Shown piece by piece: positions 49,782-64,000 of a stretch of DNA of 64,000 nucleotides; positions within the stretch are counted from its first letter, which is position 1, and every line of letters starts with the position of its first letter. The stretch covers positions 320,001-384,000 of the forward strand of contig CAVWCF010000001.1 of assembly GCA_963753435.1 (NCBI GenBank), written 5' to 3'. A model generated the notes under the pieces. That model worked only from the letters and a program-made list of their open reading frames with translations. It was not told where the DNA came from and did no database searches. Source of the stretch: an uncultured Actinomycetota bacterium (lineage in GTDB: Bacteria > Actinomycetota > Actinomycetes > CAVWCF01). The position numbers and the translations under genes are program-made.

Positions 49782-49855
49782 GCCCCGGTACTCCAACTGG
49801 TAGAGAGGGCGGTCTCAAACACCGCACAGTGTGGGTTCGAATCCCACCCGGGGTA
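49782..49855 (+). tRNA. tRNA-Leu(CAA), short variable loop, CCA not encoded
   Basis: Acceptor GCCCCGG/CCGGGGT, anticodon arm GCGGT-CTCAAAC-ACCGC, T arm GTGGG-TTCGAAT-CCCAC, discriminator A. Confidence 0.93.
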
Positions 49856-55206: not shown

Positions 55207-55809
55207 TCAGCGGCTGACGGTGATGGTGTCCCCCTCGCAACCGCCCACGGCCTGATCCCCGTAGAGGAACCCGGCGCAGGCCGGCGCGAAGATGCCGTAG
55301 ACCTTGTAGAACTCGCCGAAGGGCGAGCCCACGGTCAACCCGTTGAACGTCTGCCCGTCCACGCTCACGCTGACCGACGTGCCGTCGTCGGCCACCTGAA
55401 GCACAGTCAGCGAGGCGGTCGCGGTCGCGGCCTCGCCCGTCGCCGTGGTTCCAGGCGCTGCCGCATCACCAGTCGTGGACTCGGCTGCCGCCGGCTCCTG
55501 CTCCTGGATGAGTGGCTTGAACGGATCGGTACCAACGGCCCCGTTGAAGACCGGGGGTTCCACGGCCTCGGGGGCAGGCGCCGCCTCGGCCGGGGCTTCT
55601 TCCACCGGGGCCGCGGGGGCCTGAGCCTGCGGCTCCGGCTCCGACGACCCGCTGAAGAAGAGGAAGTAGGCAGCCGCGGCGATCAAGACCACTCCCAGCA
55701 ACGCCACCAGCAGGATCGCTGGCCGACGCGAACTGGTCTCTTCGTTGTCTTCGAACACCGGCGGCTCGGCGACGGCGACATCGCCACTGCCCGGGAACTC
55801 GTTCGACAT
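55207..55809 (-). CDS. Single-pass membrane protein in the pilP position (PilP-like)
   Basis: GGAGGAG RBS; TM helix, Pro/Ala linker, DPFKPL motif, C-terminal beta domain with two Cys. Confidence 0.7.
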   Translation of the reverse strand: MSNEFPGSGDVAVAEPPVFEDNEETSSRRPAILLVALLGVVLIAAAAYFLFFSGSSEPEPQAQAPAAPVEEAPAEAAPAPEAVEPPVFNGAVGTDPFKPLIQEQEPAAAESTTGDAAAPGTTATGEAATATASLTVLQVADDGTSVSVSVDGQTFNGLTVGSPFGEFYKVYGIFAPACAGFLYGDQAVGGCEGDTITVSR

Positions 55810-55823
55810 GTCCTCTCCTCCGC

Positions 55824-56510
55824 TCAGCTGGCCGCGAGCGCGGCGTCGGCTTGGGCCTGGGTCATGTAGACCTGGGCGGTGATGGTCGCCTCGAGTTCTC
55901 CGGTGACGGAGTCCTCTTCGCTGGCCGGGACGATTGAGATCCCGGTGATGAGCATGGCGCGGGTCAGGTCCTCGGCCTTGTTTACGAACTGCTCAACGTC
56001 GAAGTAGGAGCCCGACACCAGCATCGTGAGCGGGATCGCCACCAACGCTTCGCCCGGTTCGGCGGTTGCCTCGGTACCGGTTGCGGTGGCCTCGGACGTC
56101 GAACTCTCAGTGGCCGCCCCCTCTTCGCCTTCGGTGGTGGTGGGTTCAGTTGCCACCGCCGCCTCCACGACTGCCGTTGGCTCCTCCCGGGTCAACGAGA
56201 CCAGCGTTACGCCGGACTTGCCGGCAACGTCGGTCAGGGACCGGATCAGCGCCGGCAATTGCGGGGCCTCCGGCACCTGGGTGCGGATCTCAGCCAGACG
56301 AGCCTGCTGAGTGGGCAGGTCGGCCGCCTGTGCCTCCAGCTGCTTGATCTTGACCTGCAGGGTGGCGTTCTGCTCCTGGGCGACTGTCGTCTGGTCCTTC
56401 AGGTCGGCGGCTTCGGTGCGCTTGGGGTTCACCAGTCCGAACCAGCCGGCGGCGAAGACCGCTGCGACCAGCAGGACGGCGATCAGCGTGTACTTGCGAG
56501 TGATGGTCAT
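55824..56510 (-). CDS. pilO: Type IV pilus assembly protein PilO
   Basis: N-terminal TM, coiled coil, VP..PQLPALI, GSYFDVEQF, RAMLI; follows pilN. Confidence 0.88.
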   Translation of the reverse strand: MTITRKYTLIAVLLVAAVFAAGWFGLVNPKRTEAADLKDQTTVAQEQNATLQVKIKQLEAQAADLPTQQARLAEIRTQVPEAPQLPALIRSLTDVAGKSGVTLVSLTREEPTAVVEAAVATEPTTTEGEEGAATESSTSEATATGTEATAEPGEALVAIPLTMLVSGSYFDVEQFVNKAEDLTRAMLITGISIVPASEEDSVTGELEATITAQVYMTQAQADAALAAS

Positions 56511-56511
56511 G

Positions 56512-57246
56512 TCAGTTCCCACCCTGCTCGGTGTAGCGGCCGGAGTAGGCCTGGTCGGTGACCGTCACCGACGAAGTCGAACGGACGGCGGTCACACCGG
56601 TGCCTTCCACTTCTTCAGCGACCGAGGTGCTGAATTCAGGGTCGGCGTAGGCCGGCTGCTTGGTGAGGCTGTCCAGCCAGGTGGCCACGTCGTTGTGCTC
56701 CAGGGCGAAGCCCTCGAAGGTGACGGTGGCGATACCGGGGGCACCGAACGTGCCCGTGACCGGCGCCGTAGCCGGGTCCAGCGGAACGGTGCCCGGCTCG
56801 GGTGCTCCAGCCACCACCGGGGCGAACGGCTGGGCAATCACCAGGCTGTCCAACCAGACCCGATTCGGGATGGTCAGGCTCAGGTCGTTCAGCAGGAACG
56901 AGAACCGCACTTCCTGGCTCATGGCCTGGGTCAACTGCGTCTCGGCTGCAGCCACCTGGGCGTAAACCTTGGGTACCTCGGAGAACTCGGCGACGCGCGC
57001 CTGCAACGTGGCGGTCACCGCCTGCGCGGCGGCCAGGTCATCAGCTGCCTGGTTCGCCTGAGCCGCGGCACCGGTGTACAGCAAACCGACGCCTACGGCC
57101 GCGGCAATCCCGGCGCCGACCACGACCAGTCGAAGTTGGCGCTTGCGCGCCGCCTCGGCGATCTCGGGCGGTAGCAGGTTCACTCGCGGCATCGCCGCCA
57201 CCTGCGTGACCAGCGATGTGCTGGTCGCTTCCGTCATGACGCTCAT
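56512..57246 (-). CDS. pilN: Type IV pilus assembly protein PilN
   Basis: RVNLLPPE motif, TM, coiled coil, IPNRVWL, FEG.A. Confidence 0.9.
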   Translation of the reverse strand: MSVMTEATSTSLVTQVAAMPRVNLLPPEIAEAARKRQLRLVVVGAGIAAAVGVGLLYTGAAAQANQAADDLAAAQAVTATLQARVAEFSEVPKVYAQVAAAETQLTQAMSQEVRFSFLLNDLSLTIPNRVWLDSLVIAQPFAPVVAGAPEPGTVPLDPATAPVTGTFGAPGIATVTFEGFALEHNDVATWLDSLTKQPAYADPEFSTSVAEEVEGTGVTAVRSTSSVTVTDQAYSGRYTEQGGN

Positions 57247-58304
57247 GCGGCGGCTCCCAAGGCCAGACCGACCGGCACGACGGCCAGCCGCTCGACGAAC
57301 TGGATCTGCTCCGGGGTGAGCCCGGTGTCGCCGACGCGAATCGCGGCGAACGGCGAACCCGTGTCGACCGGCAGGCGGCAGCTTTCGCTGAGTCGCTCAG
57401 CCAGGCCGGAGAGCCGGCTGCCGCCACCGGTGAAGGTGATGCGGGAGATCGGCGCACTCGGCCAGGAAGCGCTGAAGTAGTCCAGCGAACCGCGCACCTC
57501 GTCGACGAATGTGTTTGCGGCGGACTCCAGGACTCGGGCTGCCGCTTGCCGGTCCATGCCGGCCTCGGCGCCACCGGTGAGTCCGATCTGCTGCTTGATG
57601 GCTTCGGCCTGCTCGCGCGGAACACCCATGCGCTCCGCCACTGCTTCGGTGAGGTCGGAACCGCCCAGTAGCAGGATGCGAATGAACCGCGGCACGCCGT
57701 TCTCGTGAACCACGATGTTGGTTACGCGGGCACCGACGTCGACGAGAGCCTCGACCCGGCCGGACCCGGCTTCCATGCCGGCAAGGGACCGAAGGACCGC
57801 GAACGAGGACAGGTCCACCACGGTCGGCGTCAAGTCCGCGGCCTGCACGGCCTCGATCGAACGCGCAACCATGTCGCGGGAGGCGGCCACCAGCAGGCCC
57901 CGAACCAGTCGGGTCCCTTCGTTGGAGACCACGTCCTCAAGGGGCGTGAAGTCGAGCACTGCCTGATCGATGGGCATGGGCACGTAGTCGGCGACCTGGA
58001 ATCCCAGCGACGACTTCAGCTCATCCAGCGGCATCCACGGCAGATCGACCTGCCGAACGATCACCTTCTGGTTTGCCACCCCAAGGATCACCTTGCGGCT
58101 GGAGAACTTGGTTCCCTCCCACAGCTGCTTCAGTGCGGCGGCGACGGCGTTGGGGTCCATCACCTCGCCGTCGCGCACGGCTCCGTCGGGCAGGGCCACC
58201 TGGCCAAACTTCTCCAGGCTTACCTGTCCCTTGTTGAGCGCCAACTCGGCAGCTCGGACGCCGGAGGTGCCGATGTCCAGCCCGATGGCGGTTCGTCCTG
58301 CCAC
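57243..58304 (-). CDS. pilM: Type IV pilus assembly protein PilM
   Basis: IGLDIGTS actin-like motif, VDVGA..T, TGGGS.L.GL, VGLALG. Confidence 0.94.
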   Translation of the reverse strand: MAGRTAIGLDIGTSGVRAAELALNKGQVSLEKFGQVALPDGAVRDGEVMDPNAVAAALKQLWEGTKFSSRKVILGVANQKVIVRQVDLPWMPLDELKSSLGFQVADYVPMPIDQAVLDFTPLEDVVSNEGTRLVRGLLVAASRDMVARSIEAVQAADLTPTVVDLSSFAVLRSLAGMEAGSGRVEALVDVGARVTNIVVHENGVPRFIRILLLGGSDLTEAVAERMGVPREQAEAIKQQIGLTGGAEAGMDRQAAARVLESAANTFVDEVRGSLDYFSASWPSAPISRITFTGGGSRLSGLAERLSESCRLPVDTGSPFAAIRVGDTGLTPEQIQFVERLAVVPVGLALGAAA

Positions 58305-58366
58305 GGCTCTTCCCCTCGTTCACGGCTCGCGCCGGTCCATCTCGCCCGAAGGCGATGTCAAGGGGT

Positions 58367-58395
58367 GTGTCGGCGTCACGAGGCCGTTCCTTGAG
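58367..58395 (-). promoter_or_regulatory. FliA/WhiG (sigma-28)-type promoter of pilM
   Basis: Minus strand CTCAAG-N15-GCCGACAC. Confidence 0.65.
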
Positions 58396-58404
58396 CGCCG
58401 AACG

Positions 58405-59184
58405 TCAGCTGAGGAGGCCGCCGTACCAGTCCGCGATGGCCTGGCCGAAGAAGATGGCCAGAAATGCCCCGATGATCATGCTCGGGCCGAACGGGAGCAT
58501 GGTCTTGCGGCCGGCACCACGGAACAGGATCAGCGCGATGCCGAGCAGGCCACCCACGAGGAACCCGAGGAACCCGCCGATGATGAGGATTCCCCAACCG
58601 AGGTAGCCCAGGTACATGCCGAGAACGCCCGCCAGCTTCACGTCCCCGAAGCCCATTCCGGCCGGGTAGATGAGGGCCAGCAGGAAGTAGAACGCGAACA
58701 GGGCCAGGCCGCCGCCGGCGACGCGCAGGATTGTCTCCGCCTCCCCGTTGAGCAGCGCAGCCCCGGCCAGCAGGACGAAAGCCACGGGGTAGGACGGCAA
58801 CACGATGGCATTCGGTAGGCGGCGCGTGTCCAGATCGATGGCGGACAGCGCCACGCCGATGGCCGCCAGGTACAGGTAGGCCGGCAGCGCCCAGTCCCAG
58901 CCGAACCGCAGAGCCACAAGGCCGAACAGAACGGCCGTGCCCGCCTCGACCAGGGGGTAGCGAATGCTGATGGGCCGCGCACAATTTCGGCATTGCCCAC
59001 GCAACACCAGCCAGGAGATGACCGGGATGTTGTCGCGAGGAGCGATCTCCGTCCCGCAGCCCGGACACCGGGACCTCGGCCGAACAACCGACTCCCCCGC
59101 CGGTACTCGGTGGATGACAACGTTCAGGAACGAGCCGATCAGCAGCCCGATCACGACGCAGAACGTCACCAACACAGCGGTCAT
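58405..59184 (-). CDS. pilD: Prepilin peptidase (A24)
   Basis: GSFLNVVIHR, CPGC and CRNC zinc motifs, YPLVE, ID..RLP, MGFGDVKL, PFGP. Confidence 0.96.
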   Translation of the reverse strand: MTAVLVTFCVVIGLLIGSFLNVVIHRVPAGESVVRPRSRCPGCGTEIAPRDNIPVISWLVLRGQCRNCARPISIRYPLVEAGTAVLFGLVALRFGWDWALPAYLYLAAIGVALSAIDLDTRRLPNAIVLPSYPVAFVLLAGAALLNGEAETILRVAGGGLALFAFYFLLALIYPAGMGFGDVKLAGVLGMYLGYLGWGILIIGGFLGFLVGGLLGIALILFRGAGRKTMLPFGPSMIIGAFLAIFFGQAIADWYGGLLS

Positions 59185-59243
59185 CGCGGATGGACCCTAG
59201 GCGCGCTCCAGGTGACGGTGAACGACCGACACTCGGGGCACCG

Positions 59244-60640
59244 TCAGTTCGGGTTCAACTCCAACCACTGGGTTGTCCGAATGATCGACAGGAGGGGGAC
59301 TTCGACGTCCTCGTCGTAGTTGACGACTGCGTTCTTCACCTCGTTGCGGTCAGAGTCCGCCGGGCAACCCGAACTGGGAGCGTGGTTGCGGTCATTGGCG
59401 ATGACCGTGCCCGTGATGCCGTTCGAAGAGGTTTCCAGTTTGATCTGGTTGCCCGCGCCGAACAGCCCGATCCCACCTTCGAAGTTCGAAGTCACCTCGA
59501 GGTCGTCGTCGGCTACGAACACAACGCCCGGAAGGGCAGCGGCTTGGATACCGACCAGTTTGGCCGTGACCTTGCCGCCCTTCATGTAGCAACGGTCGGG
59601 GGGGCCGCCAGACGGTGCGCCTTCGGCGATCACCGTTGCCGCGGCCACGTTGGTGTTGCGGTCCAACTCCGCGTCGCCCTGGTACACGTAGTAGATGCCG
59701 CTACCCCAAGAGGTGGATCGCATCTCCCACAACGGTGCGGTCGTTCCGCTTCCAGGGGTGTACCCCCAGCCGCGGAACGTTCCACCGCCACTGACACGTT
59801 CCCGTTCAGGGCTGTGGCGCCGGTACATGGCGTGGCGGCGGGTTTCGCGCGATCCCGTCAGGACACAGGTCGTACCAACTGCCGTTGTAGCTGGTGGCGA
59901 AAGTCTCGTACATGAAACGCGGGTTGATCTCGGGCACGTACTCAAGTTGGTTGACTTGCCGCCGGAACCAGCGTCACCGACGGATCCGCAGACGCTGTAG
60001 GAGCCGACCGACGTCACGGTGCCGTTGACTGTCTGCGAGCAACCAGTACCGGCGGCTGAGCCGTTCGTGTGGACGTTGGCCTTGCCGCCAATCACTCCAG
60101 CGTCACATCCACGGTCACCGAGGACGAGAAGGCCAGGTCACCCGACGTCAGGATCGCGCTGCCCGGCTTGTACGGAGCGAAGAGGTACTCGGCCTTGAGC
60201 ATGCGGACATCGGAGTTGGCGGCCGCTCGGCTGGGGAACCACCCCATCGAGTACACACGTTGCGGTTGCGCCGGCCGGATCGATACGTAGTCACCGGACC
60301 AGTGCTCACCAGGTCGCCACCGTCGGCGGCCGCGAGCAGACTGTCACGAGCCCACGTGCGCTCATCCTCCTCGGACTGGCGGAGTGACTCCACGGCGCAT
60401 TCGGTCCGCACTGAAGGAGTTATCGGCCTGCAGTTCGGCCAGTGCGTCATCAATCCCTGCTTCGGCCGTCTGCAGCGATCTCCGACTTGAAGCGCGACAT
60501 GGCTGGCGCTGCTTCGGAGCGCACCGGTCGCGATCGCAACCATCACCGACATCAGACCGGTGGCTGCCACAGTGATCCAGAGCACGGTCAGCATGGCGAT
60601 ACCGCGATCTTCGACGGAGGCGGCGCTGCATCCGGGTCAT
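59244..60640 (-). CDS. PilX-like minor pilin, multiple frameshifts
   Basis: GGGAGAG RBS, ATG 60640; EDRG-IAMLTVLWI... and AEAGIDDAL in different frames; C-terminal ORF ends TQWLELNPN. Confidence 0.7.
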
Positions 60641-60654
60641 GTGCTCTCCCAGGC

Positions 60655-61211
60655 TCAGGCGACGTCGTCGACGTTGCGAAGACGTTCGGCGAAATAGAGA
60701 TGCGAGTCGTGGTTGCCAGTGCCCGACGAACGCGTCGTAGTTCGAGTGCCGTCTCGACCAGACGGGTGTCCGGCGCCGGACGTCGTATGAGAACGCGATC
60801 TCGTTGACCAGGCTGCGCGCCTCAACGACTGTCGAAGTGCTTGAACCTTGCATACGCACCACGTCGAAGTGGTCCGGGATCCCCAGCGATCGCGCGTAGG
60901 CGCCCACTCCACCGACTCGTCGGCTTCGCGGCGATAGTTGGAGTTGTAGTCGATCCACAAGCACGAGCATGCTGGGGTGGCGCCGGCGTCGACGCCGCGG
61001 GCGTTGCGAATGTCCCGACCCAGCCGCTCCGACACCTTGCGGACGTCGGCCAGGCCGGTGGCCTCGTCATCGACCTGCGTCTTGGACCGCGCCATGACCG
61101 TGAAGGAAGTGACGGTTATGGCGCTGTGAAGGACAGCAGCAGCATCGTTACCATCAATTCGACGAGCGTGACACCTTCATCAGCACGCATTCGAGACAGC
61201 CGGGCAATCAT
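60655..61211 (-). CDS. PilW-like minor pilin, multiple frameshifts
   Basis: MIARLSRMRADEG|VTLVELMVTM class III signal; LGRDIRNA; ATGA overlap with the upstream gene. Confidence 0.72.
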
Positions 61212-62838
61212 TGCGGGATCACCAGCGAACTCGGCGCGGAAGCCCAGTCGTAGGCCACACGCACGGCGGTCGGCGCTCGCCCGGGAGGGTGGCGCGCATG
61301 ACCAAGTACTTGTTCTTGGTGACCGAGAAGTTGCTTGCGATCGTAACGGGACAATAAGGGCGCGAATGTGGAGTTGCAGTCATACAGCGTGGCGGTGCCA
61401 GTGCCTTCGCTGCCGAAGTGAGCCCAACGAGCGGAGTTCGCCGTGCCCGACGCCACATCGACAGTCAGTGCCCCCGCAGTCGGCATCAGGCAACCGATGT
61501 AGAGCGTCACGACCGCCGTACCCGCTGTGAAGTTCTCCTTGACAGGTGCCTGATAGCGCCAGTCGGCGACGCGGTCTCCGGTTGGTCTCCGTGGTCACGG
61601 CACCACCCTTGTTCAGGTAGCGCCCGTACGCGCCGGGCTTCCCCACCGAGTAGTCGTGGGCGGCGGCTTGGAGCGAACCGTTTGGTCCACGGTGGAGTGT
61701 TGCCCCGTTGTTCGCGTGGGAGCCCCCGGGCTGTTCGTGCAAGTAGTAGGTCGGGAAGGAGCAGGCCGGAACCACACTGCGCGGTGGGTAGCGGCCACGG
61801 ATCCTGCGTCTTGCCCGGTGCTACGGTCGAAGTCGGCGACGGCGACGGAGTTGGACTGACCGTACCGGTGGGTGTCGGCGACGGCAGCGGGCCCGATGCC
61901 GTAGACATGGTCAGCGACAGCGGCAGCGGCCGCGGCGCTTGCTGCGGCGGGCTGACGGCTGGACAACCTCCAGTCACCGTTCCACGTCCCGGTCGAGCTC
62001 GGTGCGGTCGCGACGCCAAGGAAGAAGTCGTCCGCATTGACTTCGACTGGGCCCGTGTCCACGCGTCCGTCGCCGTCGGTGTCGGTGAGCGCGATCATGT
62101 CCAGAGGCATCCTTAGCGCCGTCACCGTTGAGGTCCTGGTAGTAGGTAAAGGTCATCCCAAAGCCGGCCCATCGATGTTCCAGGCGTCGCGCGCTCCGTA
62201 GTTGTGGACTTTGAAGCCGTACACGACCTCGGTGCCCGGCCCCGCGTAATCGACGCGGACGATGTCGGCTCGAGAACGAGAACCGCGGCAACGGCAGGCC
62301 GCGACGAGTTTCGGTCACCAGCGTGGAGATCTGCTGGGTCTGTCGTCTGTCCGCCGCACGGACCACTCGACGACGATGGTGAGCTCGCCGGGTGTCAGTG
62401 GCGTAGCCAGCCGGTGATGTGACGTAGGTGGACATCGTGTACTCGGTGGCGTCGTGGTCTCCTGCGTGATGTGCGGGTTCAGCGGCTCGTCATACCGGTG
62501 GGCAGGATAGATCAGGGTTCCGGCCATCCCGGTGCCTGGATCGAAGGTGTTGCTGACGTTCGGCGATCTGAGGATCGTGCCGTCCGCGTCGGAGTGCGCC
62601 ATGTTGATGAAGACCAGCGCCCGCATCGTCTCGGTCGATTGAACGTCATGTCGACGGCCATCTGGTTCTGGCGGGCAGTCAGACCGCCCTTCAGCGCCAT
62701 CATCGTGGCGGCGGCCAGCGACATGAAGACGAACGCCGCGATCGAGAGTGCGATGACGGTCTCGATCAGCGTGAAGCCGGCAGTCGCGCGGCCGGAGATG
62801 CGGGACCGCAGACGATTGACGATTCGGGTCGCAGTCAC
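61208..62838 (-). CDS. Large PilV-like minor pilin/adhesin (about 540 aa), many frameshifts
   Basis: GTG 62838; RATAG|FTLIETVIAL class III signal; fragments with DLNGDG, DTDGDG, a PT/PS linker and Cys-containing C-terminal domain ending SLVIPQ. Confidence 0.65.
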
Positions 62839-63231
62839 GGGCACACTCCTTGTAGTGGACGGCCGGACAGCGAATCGAAGTACCAGGACTCGGCCTAGCA
62901 GCGCATGGTCGGCTTCGACGCAGTAGCCGGTGATGTCGGCGCGGCTGACGATCAACGTCACGTTCTCGGACCCGTTGCCGATCTCGCCTTGGATGTCCGC
63001 AAGCGTCATCCCGGTGAAGTCCCCTCGCTGCGCGACAGACCAGCTCTCTGCGCCGGTGGCGGCAGCCTTCAAGTCGTTCTGGAGTGCCGCGCGCCAGCCG
63101 TTCTCCCGCTGGTTCAGGAAGGCGGGGATCGCGATGGCCGCCAGGATCCCGATGATGATCATGACGACGAGGAGCTCGATGAGGGTGAACCCGCCATCGT
63201 CCCCGCCGGCGGGTGGCTGCAGCCGTCGCAT
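62835..63231 (-). CDS. Second PilA-like pilin; frameshift near 62893
   Basis: DDGG|FTLIELLVVMIIIGILAAIAIP; true C-terminus ESWYFDSLSGRPLQGVCP* lies in another frame and parallels pilA1 ENWNYQSNVGTPQDGACP*. Confidence 0.85.
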
Positions 63232-63238
63232 GCCGCGT

Positions 63239-63267
63239 TCATCGGCACTAATACGCCCCGCACTTGA
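63239..63267 (-). promoter_or_regulatory. FliA/WhiG-type promoter of pilA2 (probably leaderless)
   Basis: Minus strand TCAAG-N16-GCCGATGA, 7 nt before ATG 63231. Confidence 0.65.
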
Positions 63268-63279
63268 CTGCGACAAATG

Positions 63280-63313
63280 AGTGAGGGGCGACCCTTTCGG
63301 GCCGCCCCTCACT
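63280..63313 (-). terminator. Intrinsic terminator of the major pilin gene
   Basis: Minus strand AGTGAGGGGCGGCCC-GAAA-GGGTCGCCCCTCACT followed by CATTTGT. Confidence 0.85.
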
Positions 63314-63331
63314 TCAGGGTGTATCAGGCGA

Positions 63332-63736
63332 TCACGGGCAAGCGCCGTCCTGCGGCGTACCCACGTTGCTCTGGTAGTTCCAGTTCTCGCCAGTCAACTG
63401 GGCGTGCGTGCCGCCGAGGCAGTACGAGTTGCCGTCAGCAGCCACCGTCACCGCGACGGTCACGTCAGCGGACTGGTTGAAGCCCTCGGCGGTCAGGTCG
63501 GCCGCCACCATGCCGGTGTAGGAACCGTCGTTCTGGGTCGCGAAGGACTCCGCGGCGACCGCGGCGTTCTTCAGGTCGGACTCGACCGTCGCACGCCAGC
63601 CGTTCTCCCGCTGACGCAGGAAGGTCGGGATGGCGATGGCGGCCAGAATGCCGATGATGATCATGACAACGAGCAGCTCGATCAGCGTGAAACCGCCGTC
63701 GCGCTCCTCCATGGACTTGCGAATCCGAGCGAGCAT
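63332..63736 (-). CDS. pilA: Major type IVa pilin
   Basis: MLARIRKSMEERDGG|FTLIELLVVMIIIGILAAIAIP with E5; C-terminal Cys pair; strong AGGGAGG RBS; own terminator. Confidence 0.93.
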   Translation of the reverse strand: MLARIRKSMEERDGGFTLIELLVVMIIIGILAAIAIPTFLRQRENGWRATVESDLKNAAVAAESFATQNDGSYTGMVAADLTAEGFNQSADVTVAVTVAADGNSYCLGGTHAQLTGENWNYQSNVGTPQDGACP

Positions 63737-63797
63737 TGAAGCCCCTCCCTAGGGATGTGGTCTGAGCTCGCGGCAGGTCGGTCGGTGGCCTTGCGGC

Positions 63798-63877
63798 CGG
63801 CCGAGGTAGCTGGGCTGGCTCGGGGAGCCCCCTGGCTTTGCGCCCCCGCCTCGCGACGGGTTCGCCCGTTCTGGCCG
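63798..63877 (-). ncRNA. c-di-GMP-I (GEMM) riboswitch in the pilA leader
   Basis: Minus strand CGGCCAGA-AC-GGGCGAA-CCCGTC-GCGA-GGCGGG-GGCGC-AAAGCCAGGG-GGCT-CCCCG-AGCC-AG-CCCAGCT-ACC-TCGGCCG: P1, P2 with GNRA loop, GCAAAGC junction, P3, and equivalents of G20, A47, C92 and the C44-G83 pair. Confidence 0.85.
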
Positions 63878-63897
63878 TTCACTCACTGTCGGGATCA

Positions 63898-63925
63898 ACA
63901 TCGGGCCGGATACGGCCCGCCTTAA
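63898..63925 (-). promoter_or_regulatory. FliA/WhiG-type promoter of pilA1
   Basis: Minus strand TTAAG-N15-CCCGATGT, about 20 nt upstream of the riboswitch. Confidence 0.55.
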
Positions 63926-63977: not shown

Positions 63978-64000
63978 GGGGCCGCCCCTGGGGCGGCCCC
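63978..64000 (-). terminator. Hairpin at window edge, probably terminator of the upstream gene
   Basis: GGGGCCGCCC-CTG-GGGCGGCCCC. Confidence 0.55.

Follow-up and report, generated by a model that had tools for sequence, protein, structure and literature searches.

Candidate WhiG-type promoters and a c-di-GMP-I aptamer in the type IV pilus cluster of an uncultured actinomycete

This report concerns a type IVa pilus (pil) cluster in a 64,000-nucleotide (nt) stretch of DNA from an uncultured Actinomycetota bacterium, which we call the window and which corresponds to positions 320001-384000 of contig C1 of its genome (G000; 2.17 Mb, 98% complete, 68% G+C). On the minus strand, the gene for the major pilin, pilA1, is preceded by a WhiG-type promoter motif and, inside the transcript predicted from it, by an aptamer of the cyclic di-GMP (c-di-GMP) class I type. 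We consider it probable that the pil cluster is transcribed by the single WhiG2 sigma factor of this organism, which would be held by its anti-sigma factor RsiG when c-di-GMP is high, and that the aptamer is a likely second, post-transcriptional input on the major pilin. The starting points are promoter motifs that are conserved among relatives, an aptamer whose fold and ligand-contacting bases are present, whiG and rsiG genes with their contact residues, and a set of c-di-GMP enzymes.

WhiG-type promoters and the sigma factor that may read them

An earlier, sequence-only reading of the window had placed one bipartite motif upstream of pilA1, pilA2 and pilM, and all three copies are present at those places on the minus (coding) strand. 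At pilA1, the motif is TTAAG-N15-CCCGATGT (63925-63898), which comprises a -35 element at 63925-63921, a 15-nt spacer and a -10 octamer at 63905-63898. The pilA2 copy is TCAAG-N16-GCCGATGA (63267-63239), and the pilM copy is TCAAG-N15-GCCGACAC (58394-58367). For pilM, the sequence had been read correctly, but the start had been set at 58395, one base too early, by the inclusion of a leading C; TCAAG begins at 58394. A pattern search located two more sites just outside the window, also on the minus strand, at pilB (C1:388698) and pilT (C1:386963).

The placement of the motif in G000 is not a product of chance. When 80 sites from other genomes were used to train a weight matrix and this matrix was run on G000, the five pil sites ranked 2, 7, 29, 40 and 60 among 670 (the pilM site, for example, scores 16.9). 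Among the 80 best matrix hits, 17 have a 5' intergenic placement, compared with a background of 4.7%. When gaps of at least 40 nt are considered, sites scoring at least 15.5 are found at 11 of 1209 non-pil genes and in five of six pil gaps; this threshold was chosen after the pilA1 score of 15.7 was known, and pilT, whose split start was missed by the gene caller, was counted by hand. The published WhiG consensus T(A/C)AA-N16-GCCGA, in which CGA is invariant (PMC12871210), is matched exactly at pilM and pilT. The other sites deviate from it, in spacing at pilA2 (17 nt) and pilB (15 nt) and in sequence at pilA1 (TTAA and CCCGA).

The sequence-only reading further held that the housekeeping genes of the window, and pilD, use TANNNT instead. 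This is true of pilD, which has the housekeeping-type -10 element TAGGGT (59199-59194, minus strand) and no WhiG-type site, but across the window it extends to only 14 of the 30 genes with a gap of at least 40 nt. None of the non-pil genes among these 30 has a WhiG-type site scoring above 9.4, and no sigma-70 consensus promoter was found in the pilA1 leader.

The motif is conserved at orthologous loci, a point on which the earlier proposal had been made to depend. The order to which G000 belongs comprises only three genomes, and the motif is found at pilB, pilT, pilA1, pilA2 and pilM in all three genomes of the family, with zero or one hit on the opposite strand. In G001 and G002, which belong to another genus of this family, the pilA1 and pilM sites lie at the same places, pilA2 has the same leaderless layout, the motif also precedes the mgl genes and one minor-pilin gene, and opposite-strand hits are absent. 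For a wider comparison, the best 80 of 469 pilC loci were taken, from which 24 without a pilin in the available sequence were dropped. Of the 56 with a downstream pilin, five had a different first pilin and were also dropped, which left 51 of the major type; 47 of these have the promoter motif, 39 have the aptamer, and 38 have both. A strict form of the pattern precedes pilT in 49 of 66 related loci (antisense, one) and pilM in two of five, and it precedes none of 16 related pilD genes.

Predicted transcription starts follow from a signature downstream of the motif. In 60 of 67 leaders, GTCA, which was not part of the search pattern, stands exactly 7 nt past the -10 octamer, and among 163 distinct sites this offset is the peak of purines (140), of GTCA or GACA (36), and of ATG (11). 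On this basis, the start (+1) is predicted at 63890 for pilA1, where the sequence is GACA (the family consensus is GTCA), at 58359 for pilM, also GACA, and at 63231 for pilA2, which is the A of its ATG and would make that RNA leaderless. Contigs from sequencing runs all derive from related strains (best share 0.32) and show neither start, strand nor level; those from RNA end at 63875-63876, and those from DNA also break at 63880-63883, so that the ends are not informative on the start.

As the sequence-only reading had remarked, neither whiG nor rsiG lies in the window; both are encoded elsewhere in the genome. A single gene (C1:623494-624171) exceeds the TIGR02479 cut-off and supplies the one FliA/WhiG (sigma-28) factor, which is of the RsiG-regulated WhiG2 type. 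Its product contains KYVAGR and TLYYYEGL and has the WhiG2 residues listed as c-di-GMP or RsiG contacts in PMC12871210 (K57, G61 and R62; T235, L236, Y239, E240 and L242), and its best match in the PDB is the sigma chain of 6PFJ (E 1e-111). RsiG is encoded at C1:1605187-1605735, with two complete E-x3-S-x2-R-x3-Q-x3-D motifs, a match to PF22802, and a match to the AmfC/RsiG anti-sigma chain of 6PFJ; from this homology we infer that it would bind WhiG only with c-di-GMP. A search for c-di-GMP enzymes yielded four GGDEF and two EAL matches in the genome. The whiG gene is not within a flagellar cluster, no flagellin was found in the G000 genome, and no WhiG-type site that would suggest self-regulation was found in the 300 nt upstream of whiG. 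In G001 and G002, whiG is in frameshifted pieces, and rsiG is present. A second RsiG-like gene, with degenerate motifs, lies beside crp and nth (L005:1465-1998; C1:1292390-1292923). In G000 it has a WhiG-type site (score 13.8), whereas in G001 and G002 such a site is found at rsiG and not at this gene; negative feedback through sites at rsiG-type genes is possible.

The motif could in principle be read by another sigma factor, an extracytoplasmic function (ECF) or other alternative one, with RsiG uninvolved. We consider this highly improbable. It is true that the genome has eight matches to sigma-70 region 2, and that G093 (L140) and G134 (L141), which lack any sigma-28, keep a CCGAAAC-like -10 box before the pilin (with the +1 GTCA as well in G093); the -35 element is not kept. 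The WhiG-negative genome G020 (L143) also has a CTCA-type near match, but it has its own divergent sigma-28-like gene 3.8 kb from pilC. Against another sigma factor, the motif fits the published WhiG consensus (PMC12871210), three such promoters have been mapped in the pil cluster of Rubrobacter (PMC8325347), and the full motif follows the presence of whiG and rsiG. Among seven genomes of the class with pilC but without WhiG over the cut-off or RsiG, the pattern was found in none of six pilin leaders; among 13 genomes that have WhiG or RsiG and lack the aptamer, it was found in eight of nine. The boxes in G020, G093 and G134 make this an imperfect control. With a WhiG2 and a twin-motif RsiG present, the motif conserved, and its full form tracking whiG and rsiG, the original suggestion that the pil regulon is WhiG-dependent appears sound as a prediction of function.

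Other high-scoring 5' WhiG-type sites in G000 lie at C1:773770, 106709, 437199, 300331, 956827 and 1222131 and at C2:97936. The genes behind them include one with a GGDEF domain, one that resembles a response regulator, and several for secreted or cell-surface proteins. At one GGDEF gene, a site among the top-ranked ones is positioned for a leaderless start. The first two genes of an exosortase cassette are preceded by WhiG-type sites at C1:741974 (score 18.3) and C1:741405 (21.5, the top hit), and this cassette may be part of the WhiG regulon.

The aptamer in the pilA1 leader

The pilA1 leader, as predicted from the +1 signature, is 154 nt long (63737..63890; all leader coordinates are on the minus strand). 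The Rfam family RF01051 (c-di-GMP-I, or GEMM-I) matches it at 63876-63802 with 45 bits, compared with a gathering cut-off of 35, and this is the sole copy in the genome. The aptamer (63799..63876) begins 14 nt past the predicted +1 and comprises a 6-base-pair (bp) P1, a P2 with a GNRA loop, and P3. The riboswitch input that the earlier reading had attributed to pilA1 thus corresponds to a real aptamer of the c-di-GMP class, located inside the predicted WhiG transcript of this gene.

Positions in the aptamer are numbered as in Vc2 of Vibrio cholerae; this numbering and the P1 register were mapped onto the pilA1 leader partly from what we take to be the Vc2 structure. An A at position 20 marks variants for cyclic AMP-GMP, and the pilA1 aptamer has G there. 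At this position, the aptamers of the L097 and L107 leaders and of L042 (G034) have A (two) or C (one). The bases with known ligand roles (PMC5888326) are present in G000, namely G20 (63866), A47 (63839) and C92 (63806), and they are retained in 54, 57 and 56 of 57 leaders, respectively.

A further helix, P0, encloses the aptamer, with its 5' strand at 63881..63885 and its 3' strand, placed by alignment and folding, at 63763..63767; in G000 it is weak (5 bp). In an alignment of 37 leaders (A1), from which near-duplicates, four leaders without a match to the P0 5' strand, L107, and L135 were removed, 92% of P0 cells are paired, with two-sided changes at four of seven pairs, and P2 and P3 covary. 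On four of five measures, the complete structure does better than every one of 500 shuffles, and it also outdoes all slid versions of itself, a result that kinship may inflate. The support for P0 comes from the covariation alignment only; in the cognate-pairing tests described below, P0 is circular, because its 3' strand was picked by best pairing. P1 has five to six pairs in 55 of 55 parsed leaders. P0 persists as a simple hairpin in several of nine aptamer-less leaders, and because it remains without the aptamer, the aptamer behaves as a plug-in. Folding places an anti-P1 segment at 63771..63785, and a Shine-Dalgarno-like purine run of pilA1 lies at 63742..63750. A terminator scan found no U-tailed or U-rich terminator in the pilA1 leader.

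In an even draw of 151 genomes of the class, 60 have the aptamer, 103 have WhiG, 105 have RsiG, and 89 have a PilC of the G000 type. All but one of the 60 riboswitch genomes (59) have whiG or rsiG, and the riboswitch occurs in one of 44 genomes with neither; kin are not independent, and the p-value was given no weight. The 84 aptamer copies include 53, from 50 genomes, that follow pilC at a distance of no more than 2 kb. An aptamer over the Rfam cut-off was confirmed in 28 of 30 genomes checked, and most of the relatives' aptamers have altered internal-loop bases. Unpublished genomes (G008, G027, G030 and G036 among the 60, and L135 of G179) contribute to the class tallies, to the counts over 51 loci and 67 leaders, and to the folding sets, but not to A1.

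Some riboswitch copies precede genes for non-pilin, mostly secreted-looking proteins (L045, L047, L053, L033 and L052). In L045, L047 and L053, a WhiG-type motif lies about 65 nt upstream of the riboswitch; these loci carry both elements, so the stack is not confined to pilin genes. In L037, L048 and G139, pilin genes occur in tandem; every one of them has a separate aptamer, and those that were inspected for the promoter motif have a separate copy of it as well.

Proposed regulation and its alternatives

In the scheme that we propose, RsiG would hold WhiG at high c-di-GMP, and the cluster would be silent except for pilD, which would be driven by its housekeeping promoter. As c-di-GMP falls, WhiG would start separate RNAs at pilB, at pilT-pilC, at pilA1, at pilA2 (leaderless), and at pilM-O. 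The pilA1 RNA, starting 14 nt before the aptamer, would then sense c-di-GMP again. Because its leader is without a terminator, the riboswitch would act on translation: the ligand would lock P1 and free the anti-P1 segment, which would bury the first codons of pilA1. In G000, both layers would then repress at high c-di-GMP (a coherent loop), a sign that we slightly favor over the opposite one. Should the RNA have a lower c-di-GMP threshold than RsiG, a fall in c-di-GMP would bring out the machinery first and bulk pilin last. Published affinities are 0.39 uM for Streptomyces RsiG with WhiG (PMC8325347) and 2.2 nM for a variant of the Vc2 aptamer (PMC5888326); because these differ widely, the two layers could have different thresholds, which is a lead only, given that riboswitches are often kinetic. 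The MshEN motif of PilB would provide a third input, at assembly.

Folding of the G000 leader leans toward an OFF switch. In the unconstrained ensemble, P1 is 0% formed, because its two strands are both paired with 63785-63771. An energy of 5.3 kcal/mol is needed to hold the aptamer, and 63785-63771 then moves onto codons 1-4 of pilA1; given this cost and the absence of P1 without constraint, the leader RNA can, in the model, switch. In the held form, the cost of opening the start region, start codon included, rises by 4.9-5.0 kcal/mol.

Several observations weigh against the proposed circuit. On the promoter side, the bare pattern built from the three motifs occurs 13 times genome-wide, compared with 6, 9 and 10 times in three order-4 Markov simulations, and this count alone is near chance. 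The pilA1 site scores lowest of the five pil sites (15.7, rank 60), and only 10 of 53 related loci have the strict pattern ahead of pilB. The genomes are related and several loci are near-duplicates, so the counts given here are not independent. The minor-pilin block and the start of pilT are frameshifted as assembled (densely so at 59244-63255). The pilA1 aptamer scores near the bottom of the set (79th of 84 by E-value), and two of its internal-loop bases are off consensus (A-to-G). In folding, the held form adds only +0.3 kcal/mol for the Shine-Dalgarno sequence alone, so that the OFF assignment depends on the region scored. Across 55 leaders, the change has a median of 0.06 kcal/mol, with 13 above +1 and 14 below -1 (in the folding sets, one leader was not parsed, and two had no P1 register). 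Finally, 15 leaders with short spacers show an ON-type pairing with their own anti-Shine-Dalgarno sequences (p 0.002), in a subgroup defined post hoc.

This pairing belongs to an alternative in which the same two layers exist but the riboswitch is ON: the ligand would free a segment that captures an anti-Shine-Dalgarno sequence, and pilin would be made only at middle c-di-GMP concentrations (an incoherent loop). We regard it as quite possible, though not what we expect. In the 15 short-spacer leaders, the released segment pairs with its own anti-Shine-Dalgarno sequence at -11.9 kcal/mol, compared with -9.8 kcal/mol for foreign ones, and the p-value above is from permutation; G001 and G002 fold toward ON (-1.5 to -3.5); and in Clostridioides difficile, pilus gene expression is raised by c-di-GMP through a class II switch (PMC11477304). 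However, the 21 long-spacer leaders give a p-value of 0.99 and all 37 together 0.08, earlier definitions of the segment were without signal, and cognate-versus-foreign pairing tests of the anti-P1, anti-Shine-Dalgarno and anti-anti-Shine-Dalgarno helices revealed no family-wide signal. In G000, moreover, the released segment is C-rich and unable to pair with its own anti-Shine-Dalgarno sequence. The pairing would also require a pseudoknot with P0, which lies outside the scoring of the folding tool; the pairing test hints that the short-spacer subgroup is ON by this route.

Another alternative, which we judge unlikely, is that the WhiG promoters are true and the aptamer has lost its switching, or affects the stability of the RNA or its termination by Rho instead of ribosome access, so that pilA1 would effectively have one layer. 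In the first folding model, 38 of 57 leaders changed by less than 1 kcal/mol, and the median is still zero with the corrected P1. The two non-consensus loop bases of the G000 copy fit this view, as does the dispensability of the aptamer, which is missing from nine of 47 promoter-bearing loci, with P0 kept in several. An aptamer that had lost its function is harder to reconcile with the conservation of G20, A47 and C92 in G000 and in the 57 leaders, with a P1 of five to six pairs in every parsed leader, and with covariation in P2 and P3. Contigs of four sequencing runs retain the aptamer with one difference, and two RNA libraries yielded contigs that reach across both the aptamer and the start of pilA1, with one difference each.

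The frameshifts suggest a further possibility, namely that the locus is decaying in the G000 strain, the minor pilins being pseudogenes and the circuit a relic. We hold this to be improbable. As assembled, the frame of the second pilin-like gene, pilA2 (62512..63231, minus strand), continues into the next gene, with indels relative to related contigs. In the minor-pilin and accessory block (59244..62841, minus strand), tblastn matches of relatives change frame repeatedly, and many frameshifts are present at 59244-62900 and at the pilT start. Yet pilB, pilC, pilA1, pilD, pilM-O, whiG and rsiG are intact, related-strain contigs differ by indels at the frameshifted places, and both family relatives have scattered frameshifts, even in whiG, which is the mark of an uncorrected long-read consensus. 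Given these indels in related contigs and the integrity of the core genes, we think it more likely that the frameshifts of this strain-variable region are consensus errors. At 63255, in the pilA2 spacer, one base is absent from a contig of run X1, and the 16-nt length of this spacer may be an assembly slip.

The cluster, its surroundings and related systems

The pilus cluster runs along the minus strand from mglB-like, DUF4388, and small GTPase genes through pilB, pilT and pilC to pilA1, pilA2, the minor-pilin block, pilD and pilMNO. The genes pilB, pilT and pilC fall outside the window, with the end of pilC (PF00482) at window position 64018. A G+C hairpin 3' of pilC (63978..64000), which is without a U-tail and was not picked up by the terminator scan, likely ends the pilT-pilC transcript. 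The pilA1 gene (63332..63736; PF07963), the first pilin gene after pilC in related loci, encodes an intact major pilin of 134 amino acids and is likely a transcript of its own, owing to a long perfect hairpin after it (63280..63313); a similar hairpin is found in G001. Farther along are the prepilin peptidase gene pilD (58405..59184; PF06750 and PF01478) and the pilM unit (55207..58304), which consists of pilM (58304-57243; PF11104), pilN (57246-56512; PF05137), pilO (56522-55824; PF04350), and an open reading frame for a fourth, membrane protein (55809-55207).

Directly upstream of pilB lie the Roadblock (MglB-like), DUF4388 and small GTPase (MglA-like) genes (L012:5844-8286; C1:388843-391285), which we take to resemble the pilus polarity module of Myxococcus. 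The WhiG-type site that G001 and G002 have at these genes is represented in G000 by a weak one (C1:391364, score 10.2). Elsewhere in the window, a 74-nt tRNA with a CAA anticodon and a short variable arm (49782-49855, plus strand) lies beside a response regulator gene (49744-49166), a pairing that presumably exists in mycobacteria as well.

PilB (C1:386967-388631; L012:3968-5632) was compared with the MshEN motif, a tandem of RLGxx(L/V/I)(L/V/I)xxG(L/V/I)(L/V/I)xxxxLxxxLxxQ with a 5-residue spacer. Its N-terminus has both 24-residue motifs, the spacer, and every conserved Leu, Gly and Gln; both leading Arg residues are replaced (by Gln and Ser), with an Arg one residue earlier in each. This Arg-less form is common to most of 53 related PilB proteins, and changes to Arg9 of MshEN cost at most about fivefold (PMC5013675). 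A third c-di-GMP input through PilB is a plausible prediction. We tentatively suggest, with considerable doubt, that type IVa pili across much of the uncultured Actinomycetes could have three c-di-GMP gates: RsiG-WhiG on cluster transcription, a GEMM-I aptamer in the P0 loop on major-pilin translation, and MshEN on the PilB motor. The aptamer would be gained or lost, and its sign would depend on lineage (OFF for ordered assembly, ON for a band-pass).

WhiG-driven pili and riboswitch-controlled pilins are known, and the stacked layout on one gene is a new combination of known parts. The sequence-only reading knew of no description of it, and our literature search, in which coverage of subscription journals was limited, likewise found no publication on a stacked WhiG promoter and riboswitch in actinomycetes, supplements (including Table S4 of PMC12871210) and Rfam hit lists aside; the word riboswitch does not occur in the main texts of PMC8325347 and PMC12871210. 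No sigma factor other than WhiG is known to be under direct c-di-GMP control (PMC12871210), and an enrichment of c-di-GMP riboswitches has been reported for other phyla (PMC12452182). In the two-layer reading, two c-di-GMP sensors would converge on one 190-nt stretch, and the layout is common, with the aptamer just after pilC in 50 of 151 class genomes. It would be a compact case in which a protein and an RNA sense the same ligand at a single gene, with sign and thresholds deciding between ordered assembly and band-pass, and it would give WhiG-RsiG a role in non-sporulating, non-flagellated actinomycetes. The collection also yields dozens of natural aptamer variants and a sharper WhiG2 consensus with a +1 signature.

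The closest known system is that of Rubrobacter radiotolerans, in which (RsiG)2-(c-di-GMP)2-WhiG controls type IV pili (Gallagher et al. 2021, PMC8325347); the link to Rubrobacter pili drawn in the sequence-only reading is thus published, with mapped starts. Both pil clusters have sigma-28-type promoters (three with mapped starts in Rubrobacter); WhiG is sequestered by RsiG with c-di-GMP in Rubrobacter and, judging from the genes, would be in G000. Diguanylate cyclase (DGC) and phosphodiesterase (PDE) genes are among the Rubrobacter targets, and G000 has a WhiG-type site at one GGDEF gene. Unlike Rubrobacter, G000 has an RsiG of the twin-motif monomer type, five sites with the consensus T(C/A/T)AAG-N15-NNCGA, and a riboswitch in the major-pilin leader. 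The WhiG2 regulons in a recent preprint (Denis et al. 2026, PMC12871210) include predicted pil targets in five families as well as DGC/PDE targets, and they share with G000 the WhiG2 with RsiG, the pil targets, and the consensus. That set consists of reference genomes only, whereas lineages with a cluster of the G000 type are mostly uncultured; the relatives of its PilC are mostly from uncultured Actinomycetes, with record titles that name Frankiales, Mycobacteriales, Sporichthyaceae, Motilibacteraceae, Nanopelagicales and Nocardioidaceae.

Like V. cholerae MshE (Wang et al. 2016, PMC5013675), PilB of G000 has tandem MshEN motifs, but with both leading Arg residues replaced. The pilA1 aptamer shares with Vc2 the P1-P2-P3 fold, the GNRA loop, and G20, A47 and C92 (PMC5888326); unlike Vc2, it is nested in a covarying P0 beginning some 6 nt past the predicted +1, beneath a sigma factor that would itself be gated by c-di-GMP. 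In C. difficile, a c-di-GMP riboswitch is likewise found on type IV pilus genes, and a class I switch is tied to a sigma-28 (PMC11477304). There, however, the pilus switch is of class II and is a transcriptional ON switch, and the class I switch lies upstream of sigD, so that RNA controls the sigma factor. In G000, by contrast, sigma factor and RNA would converge on one target.

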